From contig JBEKGJ010000001.1 in assembly GCA_050012855.1 (NCBI GenBank), positions 76,188 to 140,187 on the forward strand: a stretch of DNA of 64,000 nt, in the 5' to 3' direction. Position 1 is the stretch's first letter; every line of letters starts with the position of its first letter. The notes beneath the pieces are model-generated. The model had not been told where the DNA came from. It was given only the letters and a program-made list of their open reading frames with translations, and did not search any database. Position numbers and translations under genes: made by a program. Origin of the DNA: Verrucomicrobiota bacterium (lineage in GTDB: Bacteria; Verrucomicrobiota; Verrucomicrobiia; Limisphaerales; J093). Positions 29,991 to 38,184 of this stretch are shown in pieces.

Positions 29991-32363
29991 TCAGCGGTAC
30001 GTGATTTGCAGCACGGTCAGGGAAAGCCCCGGGAAACGGTGGTTAAACCGGGGAGAAGCAAGATGCAGTTTGGATTCGCGGGCCGTGATTCGTTCGGGCT
30101 CATCAAAGCTGTTCGCGGCATCCGGTTCACCGGCCCTCTGGCTGTCGGCCAGCGTCCAGACCGAGGCGGTTTTCAGGCTTGAGCCAAAAGCGGAAAAGTC
30201 CAAAGTTCGGGTTATATCTTGCAGTGTATCATTGACGGCAAAGAGGGTGACGCTATGCGAGTCGGCATTGAGGGTCGCGCTGAAGTCAGGTCCCAAGTCT
30301 GGCGGCAACCCGCCTTCAATTCGCAGCGGCTGTCTTCCTCCCCGGGTGGCGTACAACTGTTGGGCATAATAAGTAGGCGTCTTGAACAAACGATGATTGT
30401 CCGTTTGAATGATGCCGGAGCAAAAACTGTTGGCGAGGTTCGAGCGGTTGGCGATCTCGACGAAGTCGCAGTGGCGGTGCAGGAGGTTGTGGTAACGGGA
30501 ACAAGCCAGGGCGTTCACCAGCGACCATAACATCGCGCGCCGCGGGCCGGCGTCGCCGGCGGTGGTGTTCCATTCGGTGACGCCGATGCGGAGGCGGCCT
30601 TCCGCGGCGTTAGCGCGGATCATCTCCGCGATGGCCGTCAGGTCGCTGTTCATCCATGCGAGATCGTGGCTGTAATGGTGCGGACAGACGAAAGCGAGAA
30701 ACCCGCCGGCCGCCTTGATAACGCCGGGAGTGGGATACGAGGACATGAGGGCGATGTCGGGATCAACCGCTTTCATGGTCTGGCAAAATGCCGGCAGACG
30801 TTGCTCGTATTCCCGGCCGCCTTGTTCGTTGCCGATCTGCCAGTACTTGATTCGATAGGGCTCGGCATGGCCGTTGCGCGCCCGCCAGGCTCCCATCGGC
30901 GTGTTCGTCGCGCCGTTGAAGTACTCAACTTCCCCGGCGGCGTCCGTGGGCTGGCGACCGTTGATCCGCACACAAATCAGCGGCTCCGCTCCCACAGCGC
31001 GGCAAAACTGCACGATTTCCTCCAGCCCGGGTCCGACCGGCTGCAGCCCGCCCCAGGCGCGAAAGGGCCGGCGCCGGTCGGGATCGCCAACGGTGTCGCG
31101 CCACTCAAACTGGCCCAGACCCGGATCGTCCAGCGCGCTGCCACCAAACCGGATAATGCCCGGTTTCAGCGCGCGCACCGCCGCCACAACCTCGGGCCGC
31201 CAGCCACCGACCGTCTCGACCGGCATGAGTGACACGTTGTCCAGCCACAGAGTTCCGGGGCCGGAGAACTCGATCGTGAGCGTGGCATTCTCATCGCGCG
31301 CCTTTGGAACCAGGCGGCAACCGAACTTGTTCCAACCGCCGCCCGGCACGAATTCGCAAGCTGCATAAATGCGTGCGCCGTGGTGGAGGCGGACACGCAC
31401 CGGTTGGCGCAATCCCTCCGCCTTGAACCAGCATTGAAAATCGCAGGGCTGCGTTGGGCTGACGAAAATGCCGTCCTGGGACAGGCCCGCCGTGCCGGGC
31501 GTGCCGTCCGCGACGCTGATCTTGCGGGAAACCTCCCCGCTTACCTTCGTGGTGTGGTCAAGCGAGTATTCCGCCCGGTTGACTTCGCCGCTCGGATACC
31601 ACGGCTTCTCTTTGAAATCCGTTTCCTTGATGAACTCGAACTTGTAAGGGGTGAGTCCCTCGAAACTGCCGTCGTAGAGCTTTTCCGCCCACATTCCGGG
31701 GACGAGATTGCAGAGGTACTCGATGAACTGGCCATATTGCAGCGGGCTGATGCGGGCGGGAACCGCGGGCGCCCGCGTGATCCGAACCGGCCAGTCCTCC
31801 AACCGGACTTCCTGCAGCTTGAGATCGGCGAACCAGGCGGCGCCCGTGCCGGTGCCAAATCCGGCAAAAAACAAACAGAGACGGACACGGCCATCCACCG
31901 GGGCTTTGAAGAACACGCTGACCTCGGTCCAGTCCGTGTCACCCTTGAGATTCGGGCCCGTGGCAATAATGCCGCGGCCGGCGGGCTGCTGGACCTGCAA
32001 CGTGCCCAGGACGCGCGCGGTGTCCGGCTGCAAGGCGCGGGTCCGCACCCAGCCGCTGAAGCGATAGGCGCGGTTGGGGGCCACGAGGATTTCCTGGCCC
32101 AACGCCGTGTCGGAGGGCGCCGTGGTTTTGATGCACAGCGAGTACCCCGTGTCGGGCGACCGGCCGGCGTCCCGGAGAACTTCCGGCTGCGCCCCGTACA
32201 CCGTGAGTTCCCAACCATCCAACAACCGCTCCGAAGCAAAACGGGGGTTCGCGAGGGTCCCGCCCTCGGCGGCTTGCGAACAGACATTGCCCAAGAGACA
32301 TACGCTGGCAAGCTGGGCCGCGAAGACGGGCAACCAGCCGCGGCGTTTTCCAGGCTCGATCAT
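29991..32363 (-). CDS. alpha-L-arabinofuranosidase (GH51-like) with N-terminal CBM4/9-like module
   Basis: ORF 29991..32690 trimmed to the ATG at 32363 (MIEPGKRRGWLPVFAAQLASVCLLG signal). IRFGGSALDD, YWQIGNEQGG (GH51 acid/base box). C-terminal beta-sandwich. Confidence 0.85.
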   Translation of the reverse strand: MIEPGKRRGWLPVFAAQLASVCLLGNVCSQAAEGGTLANPRFASERLLDGWELTVYGAQPEVLRDAGRSPDTGYSLCIKTTAPSDTALGQEILVAPNRAYRFSGWVRTRALQPDTARVLGTLQVQQPAGRGIIATGPNLKGDTDWTEVSVFFKAPVDGRVRLCLFFAGFGTGTGAAWFADLKLQEVRLEDWPVRITRAPAVPARISPLQYGQFIEYLCNLVPGMWAEKLYDGSFEGLTPYKFEFIKETDFKEKPWYPSGEVNRAEYSLDHTTKVSGEVSRKISVADGTPGTAGLSQDGIFVSPTQPCDFQCWFKAEGLRQPVRVRLHHGARIYAACEFVPGGGWNKFGCRLVPKARDENATLTIEFSGPGTLWLDNVSLMPVETVGGWRPEVVAAVRALKPGIIRFGGSALDDPGLGQFEWRDTVGDPDRRRPFRAWGGLQPVGPGLEEIVQFCRAVGAEPLICVRINGRQPTDAAGEVEYFNGATNTPMGAWRARNGHAEPYRIKYWQIGNEQGGREYEQRLPAFCQTMKAVDPDIALMSSYPTPGVIKAAGGFLAFVCPHHYSHDLAWMNSDLTAIAEMIRANAAEGRLRIGVTEWNTTAGDAGPRRAMLWSLVNALACSRYHNLLHRHCDFVEIANRSNLANSFCSGIIQTDNHRLFKTPTYYAQQLYATRGGRQPLRIEGGLPPDLGPDFSATLNADSHSVTLFAVNDTLQDITRTLDFSAFGSSLKTASVWTLADSQRAGEPDAANSFDEPERITARESKLHLASPRFNHRFPGLSLTVLQITYR

Positions 32364-33072
32364 GCTCGATTGATCCCAGGCTCGCTCACGAAAGCAACGC
32401 TTTTTGCGCGTGTTTCTTGCGCGCGCCCATGAGCCTTTGGCAGCAAAAGAAGCCTCCCGTTCCTTTCGGACCTGATCACGGACTATGAACCGATGCAAAA
32501 GCGCGGGCTTCTCCCTCTCCGCCTTGGGGAGAGGGCCAGGGTGAGGTGCTTCTGCCCGTCGCCCCCCAGACAGCGCGGACGCAAACATCGGCAAGCACAA
32601 ACAGAACATCGTCTTTACAAACTGCTTGAGCGGTTCTCGCTGCGGCCCACTGCATTTCACCATTCCTCGCTGGCGACCGGGACACTCCATGCGCGCGCCG
32701 CGTGCCAGTGAAGCCGCGTGAGCGGTGAGCGGTGGACAGTCGTTCCGTCATCCGGCAATCCGGCGTGTCGCCACGGGACGCTGGGGGCTGAATCCAGAAT
32801 CGAGCCGCCACAAGCCGCCACAGAAAGCACAATGGGTTTCAGGCGACGGGTGCCAGTGAGCACAGACCGCGAGAGGCTGGTTACTGCGGTCGGCAGGCCG
32901 GGCGCCACCGTTTCGCCTGGGGCACGGCCCCATGAACTGCGTCCCCTGCGGGCGAGCGTGGCCTGTCCGTGAACACAGCCCGGCGACGGCAACATGCCAA
33001 AATCAAGAGCTCCGTCGTAAAAAGCACCATACTACGGACCGCCCCTTCATGCACCAAAAGTCAGGCCGATAA

Positions 33073-33681
33073 TCAGCAAACAGAACAAGAAGCCACTGAA
33101 CTCAGCGATGACATAAGGAAGAGGCCGGAACGCCGTAACGAACTCTCGCGCTGTGTAGCGTGCCCGCTGCATAGAAAAGCGGACTTCGCGTCCGGAGGGT
33201 TCGATGGCTGAAGACCGGCACCTGCCACCCACCTCGTCAGGAGAATGTAGATGTCGAGAAGTGAAACGACCCCGGAAGCATAAACCGAAAAGCGACCACA
33301 CATCTTGTCCAGAACAACGGCATTAAAACCAACGACCGCTGCAGTGAACCAAAACTGCTCGTCTCGGTAGTTTGAATGGGTTTCGCTCACGATGTGGGTC
33401 GAGTATGGCTAACTCCAACGCTGAGGCGCAGCCGCCAGAACAACCGAAAGGACAACCATAAAACAAAACCAAACGAATGCGGACAGGCTGGCGGCTGTTG
33501 CCTCCAGAACCTTGTTAGCCATCAACATACCACCCAGAACAAATACGACTTGGGTTGAGGACTTGTTGTGGCGGGAAGAAAACACCGTAAACGCAACTTT
33601 GCCCCTCTCATGTAGAGAATTTTTGCTTTTACTAGATCGTCCGGCGATAATGGTTCTGGCGGCCAGAACTCCCCAGCGCAT
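33073..33681 (-). pseudogene. cassette-3 membrane-protein ORF interrupted by a single in-frame TAG
   Basis: ORFs 33409..33681 and 33073..33390 are in the same frame, separated only by the TAG at 33409-33411 plus 6 codons. Both parts are rich in hydrophobic helices (SAFVWFCFMVVLSVVLAAA; FWFTAAVVGFNAVVL; VVSLLDIYILL). Confidence 0.4.
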
Positions 33682-33837
33682 CGCTCGCTATCATACGATG
33701 CTGGTCCGATGGAAAGACAGTGGTGCTCGTGATCCAGAATCATTACTTCTTCCGTGGTATCCTGAGATTTGGAAGCGGTCCTATCTGGCAACTCTTGATT
33801 GTCTGTGTGCATATTTTGAAGTGGATGCGGCGTTAAA

Positions 33838-33939
33838 GTCTAACGCAAAGGTCAGCGACGGGAGCCGGCCGCCGATGATTTTCGATTTGTCCTGCAAGCT
33901 GAGCGGCTGGCTCCCGTTCGCTGGACCGAATTGTTGAAC
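33838..33939 (-). repeat. attC site 2 (102 nt)
   Basis: Read on the minus strand: R'' GTTCAAC (fits RYYYAAC), 8 nt after the cassette stop. Arms ACGGGAGCCAGCCGC / GCGGCCGGCTCCCGT, with unpaired extra bases in the outer stem. R' GTTAGAC (fits GTTRRRY). Confidence 0.75.
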
Positions 33940-33946
33940 GCATTCT

Positions 33947-35614
33947 TCAAATCCTTCCATACTTGTAACGCCCGATTATCTGAGCGTTGAGGTAACGTCC
34001 CTTCGACGGAGCACTGAGCAAGGCTGTATAGACCGGTTCTGGCACTGATTGATAGAAATATCGAGATCCACTCTTGAATGCCACGTAGAGGGTCTGCGCG
34101 TTGCTGTCGTAGCAGACACCGGCAATGTCCGATGACTCCACCGGCACGAAGGTGATGCCACCCGACACGATGGGAGCGTCCGGCACGGGAGGCCGTGCCT
34201 CGGTACGAGGCATGCTGCCCAACGCATCGGACGGCCTCGCGCCCGATAGGGCATTTACGGATACCCTACCAAGGTAGTCAGTGAGAACATTCTCGAAGGA
34301 CCGAGTACAGTCTGCCGCGCCGGAGACGGTGTGTGCGCACTCGTGCAGCAGCGTTCCCGCAAATGTTGAAAGCAAGCGCAGTTGCGTCCGCTTCACAATC
34401 ACCGCCTTGAGATTGCTGTCCCATGCTCCTTTGGTGTCGTCTTCTGACGTGCGCATGGTTTGGGAAACCAAAATCCGTGGTATATCTCTCTGGCGGAGAC
34501 CAACCAGGCCGAGTATCTGATATCGACTTTGCCATACCACGCGCTCATTCTCTGTAAACTCATTCTCTTCCACAAACTCGTACTGGAAACTTTCATTGAC
34601 CGACTGAATCCACGTACGCAAAGTCTGAAACGGCGCTGCGCCTTGCTCGGCCTGTTGGTCTGCGCGCTGTTTTTCTCGGTCTGTGACCAAAACAATGTTA
34701 CGGCCGTCACTCTTGATGTCCTCAACAAGTTCTGGCCGTGCCTTGATCTCTGTCTGCGAAATCACAACCACATTTAGCTTCTTGGCCAACTCGTTCAACG
34801 CTTTGTGTGAGATGTCGACCCATGTCAGTTCCTCCGGTAGCTCGCCTTCGTCCCTGCGTGCGTACGCTGAGGCAAGCGGTTCCAGAACAGGAGGCGCGTT
34901 CGAGGATTTCAGTATCTGGCGTATGCGATCCGCATACACCGACCTGCCGACATTAACCCGTTCACGATTGAGGGCTTTTCGCATGGGCTCGGTGAGACTC
35001 GTGACGTTGTACGAAAACAGGAAGGTGGGTTCGGCGTTAACCCACACACCATTGACGAACACCTCCGACCCTGCTGATGGGGCCGCAATTACCTGGCCAA
35101 AGGGTGTGGCGTCAAGAACGCGGTGTTCCCTGAAGCGGAGAAACATTCCTCTCGCCTTTTCGATGGCGGCGTCGGGTACGCCGGTAAGAATGAAGTCAGT
35201 ACCGCGCGACGACTGACCTGTGGGCTCGTGCGAGATGTGAAGCGTGGTTATTCCATCGAAATTGTGCTTTGCCGCCTTGGTCAGAGTGAAGGTGCCATGT
35301 TGAGACCGGATGGCAACGCTCACGTGATGCCGATCAAGGGCGGCAAGGGCGTCTTTCAGGCCGACCCCAAACTTGCCGATCACGCCGTCTGCCCCCATCT
35401 TCTCCCGGTTTTCGTTGAGTGTGAAGTGTTCAATCCTGATGCCGCGGCCATAGTCCTGGATATGCCAGCGTCCGGCATTGTCCTTGGCGATAGTGATGGG
35501 CTCCGTCCCGCTCAGCATACACTCATCGAGGGCATTGGCTATGATCTCACGGAGTCCGTGTTCAACTTCCCAATGCTCAAGAACCGTCTCGATATTGAGG
35601 TCAAATAGAGGCAT
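33947..35614 (-). CDS. integron-cassette protein: GHKL (Bergerat-fold, MORC/HATPase_c_3-like) ATPase, then unknown middle region, HExxH metallopeptidase-like motif and C-terminal KTSC domain
   Basis: N box E23-IIAN27-ALD30, G1 box D54-Y-G-R-G58, G2 box G80-KFGVG. H424-ECA-H428 is encoded at 34331-34345. The C-terminal ~65 aa carry the YxY motif (GSRYFYQSVPEPVYTALLSAPSKGRYLN), typical of KTSC. Confidence 0.85.
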   Translation of the reverse strand: MPLFDLNIETVLEHWEVEHGLREIIANALDECMLSGTEPITIAKDNAGRWHIQDYGRGIRIEHFTLNENREKMGADGVIGKFGVGLKDALAALDRHHVSVAIRSQHGTFTLTKAAKHNFDGITTLHISHEPTGQSSRGTDFILTGVPDAAIEKARGMFLRFREHRVLDATPFGQVIAAPSAGSEVFVNGVWVNAEPTFLFSYNVTSLTEPMRKALNRERVNVGRSVYADRIRQILKSSNAPPVLEPLASAYARRDEGELPEELTWVDISHKALNELAKKLNVVVISQTEIKARPELVEDIKSDGRNIVLVTDREKQRADQQAEQGAAPFQTLRTWIQSVNESFQYEFVEENEFTENERVVWQSRYQILGLVGLRQRDIPRILVSQTMRTSEDDTKGAWDSNLKAVIVKRTQLRLLSTFAGTLLHECAHTVSGAADCTRSFENVLTDYLGRVSVNALSGARPSDALGSMPRTEARPPVPDAPIVSGGITFVPVESSDIAGVCYDSNAQTLYVAFKSGSRYFYQSVPEPVYTALLSAPSKGRYLNAQIIGRYKYGRI

Positions 35615-35640
35615 GACGCGCGAAACTCTCTGTTCTTATC

Positions 35641-35742
35641 GTCCGACGTTCAGCATCAGCGGCGGGAGCCAGCCGCCACTGACGCACGGATCGGGATTGA
35701 CCTGAACGGCTGGCGCCCATCCGCTGAATGCTGTGGTTGGAG
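35641..35742 (-). repeat. attC site 1 (102 nt, core degenerate)
   Basis: Same length as attC2, with homologous arms (CAGCGGATGGGCGCCAGCCG / CGGCTGGCTCCCGCCGCTG). R'' is CTCCAAC. R' is GTCGGAC (T-to-C change in the GTT core). Confidence 0.6.
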
Positions 35743-35775
35743 CTCATGATGGAGGCGTCCCTTCTTCGGCGCCTG

Positions 35776-36114
35776 CTAGGGTCCGTCGAGGACGAAGTCG
35801 CAGCCCGAGACAGCATCGCTCGCCTCGGCCTTGCGGATTAGCTCCACCTGGCCCTGATCCAGCGAATCGACACCTTGGGCCAATAACACCCTCTCGGCTG
35901 ACGTCTGGCCCAAGCCGCCGAGATTCTCCGCCGGCGCCACTGGCACCCTGGGATCGTAAACGAGCTTGAGGACATAACGCCCGTCTTGGCGGGGCAGCGA
36001 GGCTTCCATATATCCGGCTGAGATGTCACCCTCGTCGTTCTTGACGGCTAGCCGTTTGTGGTGAAGGCCCTCGCGTTGGAGGGTCGGATGTTTCACGTAA
36101 TGGAGCGTGTTCAT
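35776..36114 (-). CDS. hypothetical protein, first integron cassette
   Basis: 112-aa ORF with ATG at 36114, 23 nt after the candidate attI crossover. No motif recognised. Confidence 0.5.
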   Translation of the reverse strand: MNTLHYVKHPTLQREGLHHKRLAVKNDEGDISAGYMEASLPRQDGRYVLKLVYDPRVPVAPAENLGGLGQTSAERVLLAQGVDSLDQGQVELIRKAEASDAVSGCDFVLDGP

Positions 36115-36131
36115 ATTGGTTCTAGCCTATG

Positions 36132-36138
36132 ATCCAAC
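36132..36138 (-). other. candidate attI recombination core (GTTGGAT on minus strand)
   Basis: Fits GTTRRRY. Lies between intI (start 36257) and the first cassette ORF, at the same ~22-nt distance to the ATG as in cassette 2. Confidence 0.35.
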
Positions 36139-36256
36139 CGTTGATTAACATGTCATTTTGACGTGATAATATGATATTGGCGGGGTTTTACCGCCCCCCC
36201 TTCTTGACCGGCGGTAATGTCCGGGTCATCATGGAATAAACACTCGTTGGAACCGG

Positions 36257-36981
36257 ATGGACAGTCAAGCCAGAACGCCGAAGCTTTTGGATCGGGTGCG
36301 CCAGGTGATGCGGTTGCACCACTACTCCCTGCACACCGAACGGGCCGACGTGGACTGGATCAGACGCTATGTCCATTTCCATCGGATGCAACGGCGCGAA
36401 GACCTGGACGGCGGGGAGGCCAAGATCGAGGCGTTTCTGAGCGACCTGGCGGTGAACGGGCGGGTGGTCCCGGCGACTCAGAACCAAGCAATGAACGCGC
36501 TGGTCTTCCTGTACAAACACATGCTGAACGTGCCGCTGGATCAAGCGATTCAGGCGGTGCGGGCGGAGCGCGAGACGAACGTGCCGGTGGTGCTGACGCG
36601 CGGCGAGGTGGCCCAAGTCCTTCCGTTGGTCGAAGGGGTGTCGCACCTGGTGGTGAAGTTGCTGGATGACTTGGCGGGGTGAGGCCCGCGGGTCGTTGAC
36701 GGAACAGAAGCGAGTCGGCGGCTCGTGCGTAGGGTGGATTTATGACAGAAGCGGTCGGAAATGGGACCGAGAAAAGTTGGAATTGGGAAGGCCAGAGGAT
36801 GTCGCGGCCCAGCGGTCCGCGAGCCACCTGGCGAACAAGCAGGTACGGACGCGCTGCGCGTGAAGGGGTCTTTGTATTGGTAAGTGCCGTCAGCCCAGAA
36901 CTCCGGGCCGTTCCTCTCCCCCACCAGGGCCTCGCGGTCGCGGGGGTAGCGGGCGGCTTGAGTTCCTGGCCTTGTGGATAA
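36257..36981 (+). pseudogene. intI: integron integrase (IntI-like tyrosine recombinase), frameshifted and truncated
   Basis: ORF 36257..36682 matches the IntI N-terminal pattern (YSLHTERADVDWIRRYVHFH, IEAFLSDLAVNGRVVPATQNQAMNALVFLYKHML, NVPVVLTRGEV) but stops at ...KLLDDLAG where LLYGxGxR is expected. Weak IntI-like traces continue in other frames (WIYDRSGRKWDRE; VPLPHQGLAVAGVAGGLSSWP). No catalytic C-terminus remains. Confidence 0.8.
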
Positions 36982-37047
36982 CGCCGCGAGCGGTGCAGTT
37001 GACTTTCGGCAACCCGACGGGAATGACACCGCGCCAGCAAGGAGCAT

Positions 37048-37482
37048 TCATGGTTTCACCTTCAACCCCGCCGCTTTCGCCAAAGCCGTCTGCCGCGTGT
37101 CGCAGGTCAGAAACTCGGTGGCCTTTAACGCCAGCGCCAGCCCGACGTGCAGCAGGTCAATGCTGCGCATGCCGAGCCTCTCCGTGTGGGTTCCCGCCAG
37201 TTCCTCGGAATGCCGGAACGTGTCGGTCCACGGGATGGGCACATGCGCCAGGATGTTGTCGGCGAGGTCGGACTCGATTCCTTGAAACGCCAGGTTGCGT
37301 TGCGCCGGCGTGATTTCGCCGCGAAAGACGCGCCGGCGAATCGCGTGCCGCAGTTCGTGGCGATGCAGGGGGGTGAACGGGAGCGGTTCCCGGGCCTTCT
37401 GGAGCCACAGCAACACCTTCGGGGAATCGGCATGTGGGGTGTAAACCCGGGCCAGGAAACTCGTGTCGGCGTAGGCGGGCAT
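37048..37482 (-). CDS. vapC: PIN-domain toxin VapC
   Basis: MPAYADTSFL (N-terminal Asp), ...HRHELRHA..., SIDLLHV, LTCD. 144 aa. Confidence 0.85.
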   Translation of the reverse strand: MPAYADTSFLARVYTPHADSPKVLLWLQKAREPLPFTPLHRHELRHAIRRRVFRGEITPAQRNLAFQGIESDLADNILAHVPIPWTDTFRHSEELAGTHTERLGMRSIDLLHVGLALALKATEFLTCDTRQTALAKAAGLKVKP

Positions 37483-37484
37483 AC

Positions 37485-37525
37485 TGGAAGGTTGAAGGTT
37501 GAGAGTTGAGGGTTGAGGGAATTGC
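37485..37525. repeat. heptamer tandem repeat inserted between vapB and vapC
   Basis: Plus strand: CTGGAAG GTTGAAG GTTGAGA GTTGAGG GTTGAGG GAATTGC. Confidence 0.8.
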
Positions 37526-37578: not shown

Positions 37579-37827
37579 TCAGTACGGCCGGGATTCACGT
37601 TCTTCCACGACCACATCGCCCGGCAACACGACGTCGCCGTAGATGCGTTGGAGCCGCGCGGCGAAGTCGGGACGCTGCTTCGGTCGGGGGGACTTCGAGG
37701 CCGGTGGCGGAGCGAGCAGCGCGATGATTCTGCCACGTTTGCTGATGGCCACCGGCTCGCCCTGTTCCACCCAGGCAAAGACACTGCCAAAATCGTGCCG
37801 CAGTTTCCGCAAGGTCGCCGTCTTCAT
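37579..37827 (-). CDS. Phd/YefM-like antitoxin (VapB partner)
   Basis: ATG at 37827. MKTATLRKLRHDFGSVFAWVEQGEPVAISKRGRIIALL is a typical antitoxin N-terminus. Lies upstream of vapC. Confidence 0.7.
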   Translation of the reverse strand: MKTATLRKLRHDFGSVFAWVEQGEPVAISKRGRIIALLAPPPASKSPRPKQRPDFAARLQRIYGDVVLPGDVVVEERESRPY

Positions 37828-38184
37828 GTGCAACAAGTATGTTTAACTTCGTGCGGAAGTCAATCGGGCAAATCTCTCCCCCGCGCAGACATGCGTGGCG
37901 GGGTCGGTCCGTAGTATCGTGCTTTGACGACTCTGCACTTGATTCTGGCTTGGTACCATCGGCCGGGCTGCGTTCACGGATCGGCCACGCCATACGCGGG
38001 CTTTTTTTCGCGAATCTTTTTCGAGGCGGCTAGAGCAGCGGCAGCGCCGGCCACGGCAGAAATCTCCGGCAGTTGAGGGCCGCTGCTGGCCACTCAACTC
38101 TCATCCATCATCCGCCTCACGCCACCGCCACCACCGGTTGCGCCGGGAAATCCACCTGTGCCGCCGCCGCCGGTTCGACGCCGC

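Follow-up and report, generated by a model that had tools for sequence, protein, structure and literature searches.

The 64,000-nucleotide stretch analyzed here, called the window below, comes from a Verrucomicrobiota bacterium (contig JBEKGJ010000001.1, positions 76,188 to 140,187 of the forward strand) and contains a 555-amino-acid (aa) open reading frame (ORF) on its minus strand (33947..35614; ATG start, stop codon at 33947-33949). When the translation, Pfam matches, homologues and structural model of this ORF were examined, five successive parts were observed in one polypeptide: a GHKL ATPase domain, a middle region, a zincin-like domain with an HExxH motif, a linker and a KTSC domain. 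We read the protein, with a probability of about 0.4, as an ATP-gated metalloprotease acting in a genetic-conflict system, most likely against phages or foreign DNA. The gene, which fills an integron cassette, is a credible candidate immunity gene. An earlier note on this DNA had described the ORF and a three-part order of GHKL ATPase, HExxH and KTSC; the ORF was found exactly as claimed and the architecture was confirmed by motifs, domain scan and fold searches. Since the identical protein is on record from 32 contigs (NCBI, JGI and ENA), labelled 'MAG: KTSC domain-containing protein [Verrucomicrobiota bacterium]' (MAG, metagenome-assembled genome), and more than 3,300 homologues were retrieved at E<=1e-3, the ORF is a genuine gene rather than a product of chance.

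The first ~460 aa constitute the core of Pfam family PF25856 ('MPN635_N'). This assignment is a precomputed database annotation that was not re-scored, and it is found on the exact protein and on all of the at least 120 listed homologues; NCBI names members 'ATP-binding protein' or 'KTSC domain-containing protein'. A literature search for PF25856, KTSC, GHKL with metallopeptidase, SbcC or anti-phage yielded no description of the family, and MPN635 was mentioned only in a listing as a non-essential Mycoplasma gene. The protein had been called undescribed. As PF25856 is already listed in databases, the family is uncharacterised rather than undescribed. The combination of GHKL and zincin domains, its contexts and its exchanges of tails appear unreported in the literature searched.

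When 1.84 billion representatives were searched with the family profile, 459 clusters were obtained at E<=1e-30 and 3,169 at E<=1e-3. In data with one genome per species, 293 loci were confirmed among 185,579 species genomes. Members occur in Verrucomicrobiota, Planctomycetota, Acidobacteriota, Actinomycetota, Chloroflexota, Pseudomonadota, Bacteroidota, Bacillota, the candidate phyla radiation (CPR) and several archaeal phyla, the full core was found on ten plasmid records, and one Nitrosopumilus MAG carries two copies. A typical member has ~461 aa and lacks KTSC. Three longer proteins (P0027, P0032 and P0034; 772-860 aa) have the GHKL and middle half (~290-350 aa) duplicated in tandem ahead of a complete core and look like a single-chain pseudo-dimer, which would be expected if the ATPase halves normally pair.

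The ATPase domain (residues 1-145; 35180..35614, minus strand) carries motifs I-IV of the Bergerat fold. When conservation was counted in 230 members covering the whole core, E23 and D30 of motif I were present in 230/230 and N27 in 229/230, and D54/G56/G58, G80/G83/G85 and G138/T139 (motifs II-IV) were each kept in at least 228/230; the GHKL motifs are intact in 228/230 members. In the query, motifs II and III read D54-Y-G-R-G58 and G80-K-F-G-V-G85, and the Bergerat signature claimed earlier (E23/N27/D30, D54-x-G56-x-G58 and G80-x-x-G83-x-G85) is entirely present in the translation. The domain is divergent in sequence, because Pfam HATPase_c matches residues 18-108 below its gathering score (23.0 bits versus a cut-off of 26.4; E 1.1e-4). 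NCBIfam gave only marginal matches to GyrB, ParE and sacsin-type ATP-binding domains, and the family profile aligns with motifs I-II of GyrB/ParE.

An AlphaFold full-length model built with 69 homologues had a mean predicted local distance difference test (pLDDT) score of 84, with residues 461-480 as the sole disordered stretch. When this model was compared with the PDB, the best matches were Hsp90, Hsc82 and HtpG (E 1.5e-9 to 1.7e-7), including Hsp90 middle domains, followed by the ATPase regions of GyrB, ParE, MutL and Topo VI-B (MutL at rank 27); Foldseek probabilities for the ATPase domains of all these proteins, Hsp90 included, are 0.96-1.00. Motifs and fold both place the protein in the GHKL superfamily, as had been proposed for its N-terminus. 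The more specific MORC/HATPase_c_3 label was not adopted. It is unsupported because no MORC structure was found among the top 50 PDB matches of the full-length model; in the Pfam scan the query had no HATPase_c_3 match at E<=1, and the homologues scored 20.9-25.8 bits (cut-off 25) with only one above the cut-off.

The middle region (residues 146-345; 34580..35179, minus strand) was modelled mostly with pLDDT >85 and consists of three pieces, one beta-rich, one helical and one, at ~280-345, a small alpha/beta module. The evidence for it comes from its conservation, from the full-length fold alignment with the N-terminal and middle domains of Hsp90 and from phage homologues that share residues ~10-250. 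A motif of N216-R217-E218-R219...G223-R224 is near-invariant across the 230 members, and the region may have a transducer-like role. It had been reported as matching nothing recognisable; it is part of the conserved ~460-aa PF25856 core, for which no function is described.

The zincin-like domain (residues 346-460; 34235..34579, minus strand) was modelled separately in a sub-model of residues 326-462. The sub-model has a pLDDT of 90.7 and shows three strands, the HExxH helix and a long following helix. The motif H424-E-C-A-H428 (H424-E425-x-x-H428; 34331..34345, minus strand), located exactly where it had been claimed, lies inside helix 415-431, and E441 lies on helix 438-457. HExxH is intact in 220/230 members, E441 in 227/230 and D435 in 220/230. 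As the motifs are kept in 228/230 and 220/230 members, the ATPase and HExxH sites are both under strong purifying selection.

Each of the best 22 PDB matches of residues 326-462 is either a zinc metallopeptidase or IrrE-like. Projannalysin, selecase and proabylysin, all minigluzincins, match with a probability of 0.91-0.96, and the other matches include IrrE/PprI, an IrrE-type regulator of M. tuberculosis, leukotriene A4 (LTA4) hydrolase, ZMPSTE24, anthrax lethal factor and MATCAP. One homologue has a weak match to DUF6782, a 'putative metallopeptidase'. The consistency of these matches indicates that the HExxH motif lies in a predicted zincin-like, peptidase-type fold and not in a non-peptidase fold, and HECAH is a putative zinc-binding and catalytic motif. 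SprT, Wss1 and Spartan were not among the zincin fold matches, and assignment as a DNA-protein-crosslink protease of their type, attractive given the SbcCD neighbours of some members, was dropped and survives only within the DNA-end alternative discussed below.

A Pro/Ala-rich flexible linker (residues 461-490; 34145..34234, minus strand; pLDDT <50 at residues 461-480) joins the core to the KTSC domain (residues 491-555; 33950..34144, minus strand). The C-terminal KTSC domain claimed earlier was recovered as Pfam PF13619 at residues 493-550 (E 3.5e-19; 68.7 bits versus a cut-off of 25; model positions 1-58/58). Structures of KTSC from M. vulcani (7x8c), Y. pestis YPO2434 (4rgi) and the C-terminus of Paenibacillus HerA (8wiv/8wld; residues 632-696) match with 35-39 % identity and target-normalised template modelling (TM) scores of 0.89-0.95. 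The match to 7x8c has 39 % identity, a TM score of 0.94-0.95 and a root-mean-square deviation of 0.5-0.6 Å. In HerA, this matched region falls inside the C-terminal 'arm' (aa 576-696), through which neighbouring subunits are contacted and a split spiral is stabilised (PMC11472057), and KTSC has been described by Aravind's group as binding DNA or RNA (PMC9503650, PMC7824862). Given these binding descriptions and the position of the HerA arm, KTSC may anchor the protein on nucleic acid, promote its assembly, or do both.

KTSC does not define the family, as most members lack it and others carry different C-terminal domains. At least 50 extra C-terminal residues are present in 55/230 members, and the additions that follow the core are KTSC, Sel1, TPR, LRR_5 (BspA-type leucine-rich repeats), Bles03, FGE-sulfatase, GYF_2, RNA_pol_A_CTD and the PcrA/UvrD Tudor domain. 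KTSC, which occurs in ~26 close clusters and also in more distant clusters, is thus only one among many C-terminal domains that can be exchanged. In the Nitrosopumilus MAG, the gene after a 458-aa core encodes a 70-aa KTSC domain by itself, and an ORF with a SWIM-like motif comes next; this split pair is the fission counterpart of the fusion in the window. The locus (L058, 6415-11874 of CATOSM010000001.1) is a same-strand block of five genes for SbcD, an 809-aa SbcC-like ATPase, the 458-aa core, the 70-aa KTSC and an 80-aa ORF with the SWIM-like motif CxC...CxH. The second core and KTSC copy of this genome (L060) has different neighbours.

When 4,407 ORFs from 80 loci were clustered all against all, the only cluster common to most loci was the family itself. 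A universal partner gene was rejected, since the largest non-self cluster, an SbcD/Mre11-like phosphoesterase, is present in only 13 loci. An SbcD-like gene lies within 10 kb in 13/80 loci, and ~11-16 % of members stand beside or in operons with SbcD/SbcC-like nucleases. Same-strand genes that abut or overlap in the order SbcD, SbcC/Rad50-like ATPase and core were observed in Nitrosopumilus (L058), Aenigmarchaeota (L059 and L084) and Nanoarchaeota (L064), and also in Pyrinomonadaceae (Acidobacteria; L033 and L038), with an AddB-like helicase-nuclease downstream in L038. In L034 the core is followed by NurA, HerA, SbcD and SbcC-like genes. The gene immediately upstream encodes an OLD-family nuclease at L047 and L073 and RmuC at L088. 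CoiA-like nucleases adjoin the family gene at two further places, L094 and Croceicoccus plasmid p2; on the plasmid, SbcD and an SMC ATPase come next.

Pfam families of the immediate neighbours (n=136) and of control genes 5.5-10 kb away (n=87) were counted from the best 25 families listed. The commonest families of the immediate neighbours were AAA_23 (9), AAA_15 (6), SMC_N (6), RmuC (4), AAA_21 (4) and DUF2130 (3). The recurrent families of the control set were PAS, GGDEF, histidine-kinase and SNF2, and AAA_23, AAA_15, SMC_N, RmuC and DUF2130 were not among them. PADLOC, counted in the same way, gave LmuB-like ATPases among the neighbours in 8 cases, as well as single strong matches to a type IIG enzyme, to RmuC and to several PDC (phage defence candidate) models.

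Several members lie inside or beside defence genes. On plasmid pSR56 of Salinibacter ruber M8 (L100, NC_014028.1) the family gene is located between hsdS and hsdR of a type I restriction-modification (R-M) operon; further genes of this operon encode a SprT-family metalloprotease, another methyltransferase and a GIY-YIG nuclease. In Natrinema zhouii the family gene is on a plasmid (L101, NZ_CP084884.1) and lies between a cluster of SIR2, a HerA-like ATPase and a stand-alone KTSC, ~5 kb away, and a pair of prokaryotic Argonaute (pAgo) and phospholipase D (PLD) genes on the other side. Two classes of defence-linked ATPase that are unrelated to each other are thus accompanied by KTSC, either fused or free. 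In Bacillus bombysepticus, a plasmid-borne family gene adjoins a GIY-YIG nuclease and a DUF2220 (Wadjet-type) block. A KTSC-fused relative with 63 % identity has a giant DUF4011/AAA_11/AAA_12/MTES_1575 helicase on one side and a type I R-M and GmrSD pair on the other. Giant AAA_11/AAA_12/MTES_1575 helicases were observed at L016 (9936-14474; 1,512 aa) and L107 (487-5271; 1,594 aa, with DUF4011 and DUF3320); each directly adjoins a family member, and these two members are unrelated, only one of them having KTSC. Other members are near integrases, IS110, Prim-Pol and toxin-antitoxin genes.

The earlier note had asked whether homologues sit in integron cassettes or in defence islands. R-M operons, defence islands, plasmids and other mobile settings were found, and no integron cassettes among the fetched loci. 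All fetched loci were scanned crudely for attC and compared by blastn with the window's three attC sites and the two flanks of the gene; neither search detected anything at homologue loci, and homologues as integron cassettes were rejected. On this evidence the cassette context is specific to this genome. Around the window gene and six homologues of its KTSC subfamily, no conserved neighbour was observed, in keeping with the claim of a one-gene unit. The absence of shared flanks and of attC at homologues fits an autonomous gene that reached the integron on its own. The same pattern, with homologues outside integrons lacking attC, has been described for defence cassettes of mobile integrons (10.1101/2024.07.02.601719).

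In the window, the cassette is closed by an attC site of 102 nt (33838..33939, minus strand; R'' GTTCAAC, R' GTTAGAC), an imperfect palindrome directly 3' of the stop codon that forms a long bulged stem (dG -45 to -52 kcal/mol). Its bulged bases are confined to the R''-L'' arm, as expected for a minus-strand cassette. A second site of 102 nt (35641..35742, minus strand; R'' CTCCAAC, R' GTCGGAC) lies 27 bases 5' of the ATG and is clearly homologous to the first (GGGAGCCAGCCG / CGGCTGGCTCCC core); its crossover triplet is degenerate, with GTC where GTT is expected. These two homologous sites confirm the 1.8-kb cassette bounded by attC sites that had been proposed. A third attC-type site of 114 nt (33407..33520, minus strand; GGCTAAC ... 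GTTAGCC) closes the next cassette, which has a 90-aa ORF (33409-33681).

The first cassette has a 112-aa ORF without family match (35776..36114, minus strand). This ORF and the ORFs flanking the six KTSC-subfamily homologues have no mutual similarity, and a conserved two-gene module with it was rejected. A truncated integron integrase of 141 aa (36257..36682, plus strand) lies 640 bp from the KTSC cassette gene in divergent orientation. The fragment retains only the N-terminal SAM-like domain (Phage_int_SAM_4, E 6e-21), with 51 % identity to an annotated integron integrase and 41 % to IntI1. All four sigma-70-like promoter matches found in 33300-36800 are inside the spacer between intI and the cassettes (36129..36232; putative attI/Pc region). 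Only ~365 bp (36683-37047) separate the intI fragment from the next gene, and the catalytic domain of the integrase has therefore been deleted. Because intI lacks this domain, the integron is decayed. The element is a decayed chromosomal integron with at least 3 cassettes, and the array, with at least 3 attC sites, is effectively a remnant resembling a cluster of attC sites lacking an integrase (CALIN). GC content is 52-59 % over 33-36 kb and ~64 % in the surroundings.

Beyond the intI fragment, a PIN-domain toxin (37048-37482) and a Phd/YefM-like antitoxin (37579-37836) are encoded on the minus strand. The pair is unusually far apart (96 bp), and the spacer contains GGTTGAR repeats (~37487-37520). 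On the other side of the cassette gene, an alpha-L-arabinofuranosidase gene (29991-32690, minus strand) has an ORF of 899 aa here and 790 aa in the public record. An alpha-L-arabinofuranosidase is also encoded at 4458-6407 of L003, a MAG with a 90 %-identical homologue, on the opposite side and with flanks not shared with the window.

Phage relatives were detected for the N-terminal half. In a viral fold search, uncharacterised phage proteins matched at E 1e-20 to 1e-13 and dozens of T4-type RIIA proteins at E 1e-8 to 1e-6. Proteins of 372-398 aa from Acinetobacter phage ABPH49 (L104, 2456-3652) and Pseudoalteromonas phage H101 (L103, 2465-3583) share residues ~10-250 with the family (hhalign probability 97-98 %), and motif II of the ABPH49 protein is degenerate, with FGGS replacing DxGxG. 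The full architecture with the zincin domain was absent from 50,697 phage records, where no place covered at least 80 % of the query.

The sporadic mobile spread, the nuclease- and defence-rich neighbours and the conserved sites were counted in favour of a conflict system, together with the precedents of VcSduA, of the KTSC-ending HerA of SIR2-HerA and of defence systems in integron cassettes, and it is from these that we infer a defence function. The protein would then be a GHKL-regulated, single-protein system of the conflict type, made of the PF25856 core and KTSC. In GHKL ATPases generally, ATP binding closes the N-terminal domains into a dimer. The Bergerat domain would likewise bind ATP and dimerise, acting as a nucleotide-driven clamp or switch, and the NRER...GR motif of the middle region may read the nucleotide state. 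This switch would gate the putative HExxH...E zinc protease as the output. The exchangeable tail on its flexible linker (KTSC, Tudor, alpha-CTD, TPR, Sel1 or LRR) may tether the protein to a nucleic-acid or protein target or promote assembly. The resulting activity would be directed against phages or foreign DNA, either alone, as here, or beside SbcD/SbcC-type, OLD, RmuC and restriction nucleases.

A more specific version of this mechanism is conceivable, in which the family would be a class of immune effector or sensor not recognised before, and we regard it as quite speculative. The protease might be recruited through KTSC, Tudor or alpha-CTD tails to DNA or RNA ends or to replication or transcription complexes, where it would strip or cleave the capping or protective proteins of invading DNA (terminal proteins, or end-binding inhibitors of the Gam or Ku kind) and so expose that DNA to destruction by partner nucleases (SbcCD, OLD, RmuC or restriction enzymes); when solitary, it might cleave an essential host or phage protein to abort infection. 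If so, GHKL-coupled proteolysis would be a principle new to prokaryotic defence, and RIIA-type proteins of phages would be its counterpart in evolution.

Several observations weigh against the conflict-system reading. The zincin fold matches are weak (E 0.02-0.1), though mutually consistent, and metal binding and proteolysis by the HExxH domain are putative. No family of PADLOC-DB v2.0.0, which includes Shedu, Mza, Tiamat and PDC candidates, matched the query at E<=1, so that the search for a known defence system suggested in the earlier note gave no system model. The enrichment among neighbours is modest (AAA_23 in 9/136 versus at most 1/87), with crude ORF calls and related genomes that are not independent, and the contexts at L003, L105 and L111 are uninformative. 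The best full-length fold match is a chaperone (Hsp90), and the likeness to RIIA together with the phage N-terminal homologues fits a counter-defence role, or one that benefits a mobile element, equally well. The integron is inactive at this locus, and the family is known from sequence and predicted structure.

Part of this evidence would suit a different role, in which the protein is an accessory of DNA-end repair or processing to SbcCD-like, HerA-NurA, AddB-like, RmuC and CoiA-like nucleases and not an immune gene as such. For example, the GHKL domain could clamp DNA while the protease clears bound or cross-linked proteins at the ends and KTSC serves as a nucleic-acid tether. The SbcD-like genes within 10 kb in 13 of the 80 loci, the abutting SbcD, SbcC-like and core genes in archaea (L058, L059, L064 and L084) and Acidobacteria (L033 and L038), the NurA/HerA/SbcD order of L034, the AddB-like gene of L038 and the CoiA-like genes of L094 and Croceicoccus p2 all point to such a role, as do the description of KTSC as DNA- or RNA-binding (PMC9503650, PMC7824862) and the presence of IrrE/PprI, a DNA-damage-activated protease, among the fold matches. 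However, most members, including the window gene and its closest relatives, lack such a neighbour, and the family is found in a small fraction of species, on plasmids and in integrons. The SbcCD-like pairs are themselves accessory, for example on a conjugative plasmid, and their ATPases resemble the defence SMC/ABC ATPases LmuB, mad3 and Ppl. The lack of SprT, Wss1 and Spartan among the zincin matches also speaks against it, and we consider this role unlikely, though well worth keeping in view. Even less probable is that the HExxH domain is no working protease, the protein being a MORC/MutL-like ATP-driven DNA clamp in which the zincin-like domain is a zinc-stabilised structural or interaction module. 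Such a clamp would agree with the weak zincin E-values, with the 10/230 members that lack a complete HExxH and with GHKL proteins such as MORC, which work without a protease; yet H424, E425, H428 and E441 are kept in 96-99 % across bacteria and archaea, a structural zinc site needs no catalytic Glu, and the sub-model has the full strand-helix-helix layout of a zincin.

The Hsp90 likeness raises the matter of a chaperone-protease for quality control or stress, the 'stress module' of the earlier note, in which the clamp would close on clients, the zincin domain would degrade them and TPR or Sel1 tails would recruit them. The best full-length PDB folds (Hsc82, Hsp90 and HtpG, with Hsp90 middle domains), a weak NCBIfam match to the sacsin N-terminal ATP-binding domain and the existence of TPR and Sel1 fusions agree with this. 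Set against them are the absence of any Pfam match to HSP90 or another chaperone family, neighbours that are mostly nucleases and DNA ATPases rather than proteostasis genes, tails (KTSC, Tudor and alpha-CTD) that point to nucleic-acid or RNA polymerase contexts, and a sporadic mobile distribution unlike that of a housekeeping chaperone, and we give this role little weight. We are similarly doubtful that the gene serves counter-defence or the benefit of an element, as a relative of phage RIIA-type GHKL proteins that shields its carrier and not the host. The phage fold matches (E 1e-20 to 1e-13, and 1e-8 to 1e-6 for RIIA), the phage proteins sharing residues ~10-250 (hhalign 97-98 %) and the occurrence of the family on plasmids and in an integron would be explained, and RIIA is described as having GHKL at its N-terminus, a C-terminus that varies greatly and a poorly understood part in counter-defence (PMC7824862). 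The zincin-bearing full architecture, however, was found in none of the 50,697 phage records, and genes found within an hsdMSR operon or in defence islands of the chromosome, as family members are, typically belong to host defence.

If the conflict-system reading is correct, the gene is a compact one-gene system of 1.7 kb that can be cloned directly, and it represents hundreds of 50 %-identity clusters in bacteria and archaea without assigned function, although candidate families of such a sort are numerous. A protease output would join the GHKL-controlled immune proteins, whose outputs have so far been nucleases (VcSduA/Shedu) and an Argonaute-Schlafen fusion. The gene also offers a handle on the role of KTSC, which ends the HerA of SIR2-HerA as well, and on the RIIA-type GHKL module. 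From the recurrent operons with accessory Mre11/Rad50-like nucleases, a connection of proteolysis with attack on DNA ends is suggested that can be tested, and sedentary integrons of Verrucomicrobiota would carry cargo like that of defence islands in other genomes.

When compared with known systems, the protein is not shown to be a MORC protein, an Hsp90, a Shedu or a PADLOC-listed system, and its parts resemble different relatives. For the ATPase and the following domain, the best solved structures are Hsp90/HtpG and GyrB/ParE, the latter also sharing motifs I-II in the profile. Identities are 10-15 % and TM scores 0.23-0.29 (13 % and 0.27 for Hsp90), and the query has zincin and KTSC domains in place of Toprim or the Hsp90 C-terminal domain. 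Neither Pfam nor NCBIfam gave an HSP90 match, and the likeness is at the fold level only. The RIIA proteins and phage 'histidine kinase-like ATPases' share the N-terminal GHKL domain and the next domain at the fold level and have a variable C-terminus; the alignment of ABPH49 and H101 ends before the HExxH domain, and RIIA acts for the phage. The minigluzincins and ImmA/IrrE (PprI) have, like the query, a three-stranded sheet, an HExxH helix and a next helix that possibly gives the third ligand. Their identity to the query domain is 12-16 % at E-values of only 0.02-0.13, and they are stand-alone or linked to helix-turn-helix (HTH) or GAF domains, without ATPase fusion.

Among defence systems, membership in a known one was rejected, as no PADLOC model matched and CapK, an HTH-STAS-GHKL kinase (PMC13373217), differs in architecture. 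In the validated SIR2-HerA of Paenibacillus, a defence ATPase also ends in KTSC; in the query it is attached by a disordered linker and fused to an ATPase class other than HerA. By architecture, the query is likened most closely to VcSduA, a Shedu of type I-D from Vibrio cholerae and a validated one-protein anti-phage system with GHKL motifs I-IV, a clamp-like middle domain and a C-terminal nuclease (PMC12137116). No PADLOC Shedu model matches, and VcSduA is regarded as an analogue only. Both are single polypeptides with an N-terminal GHKL domain, a middle domain and a C-terminal effector, which is a DUF4263 PD-(D/E)xK nuclease in VcSduA and a zincin-like HExxH domain in the query. VcSduA would be the closest validated analogue, with a protease replacing the nuclease output here.

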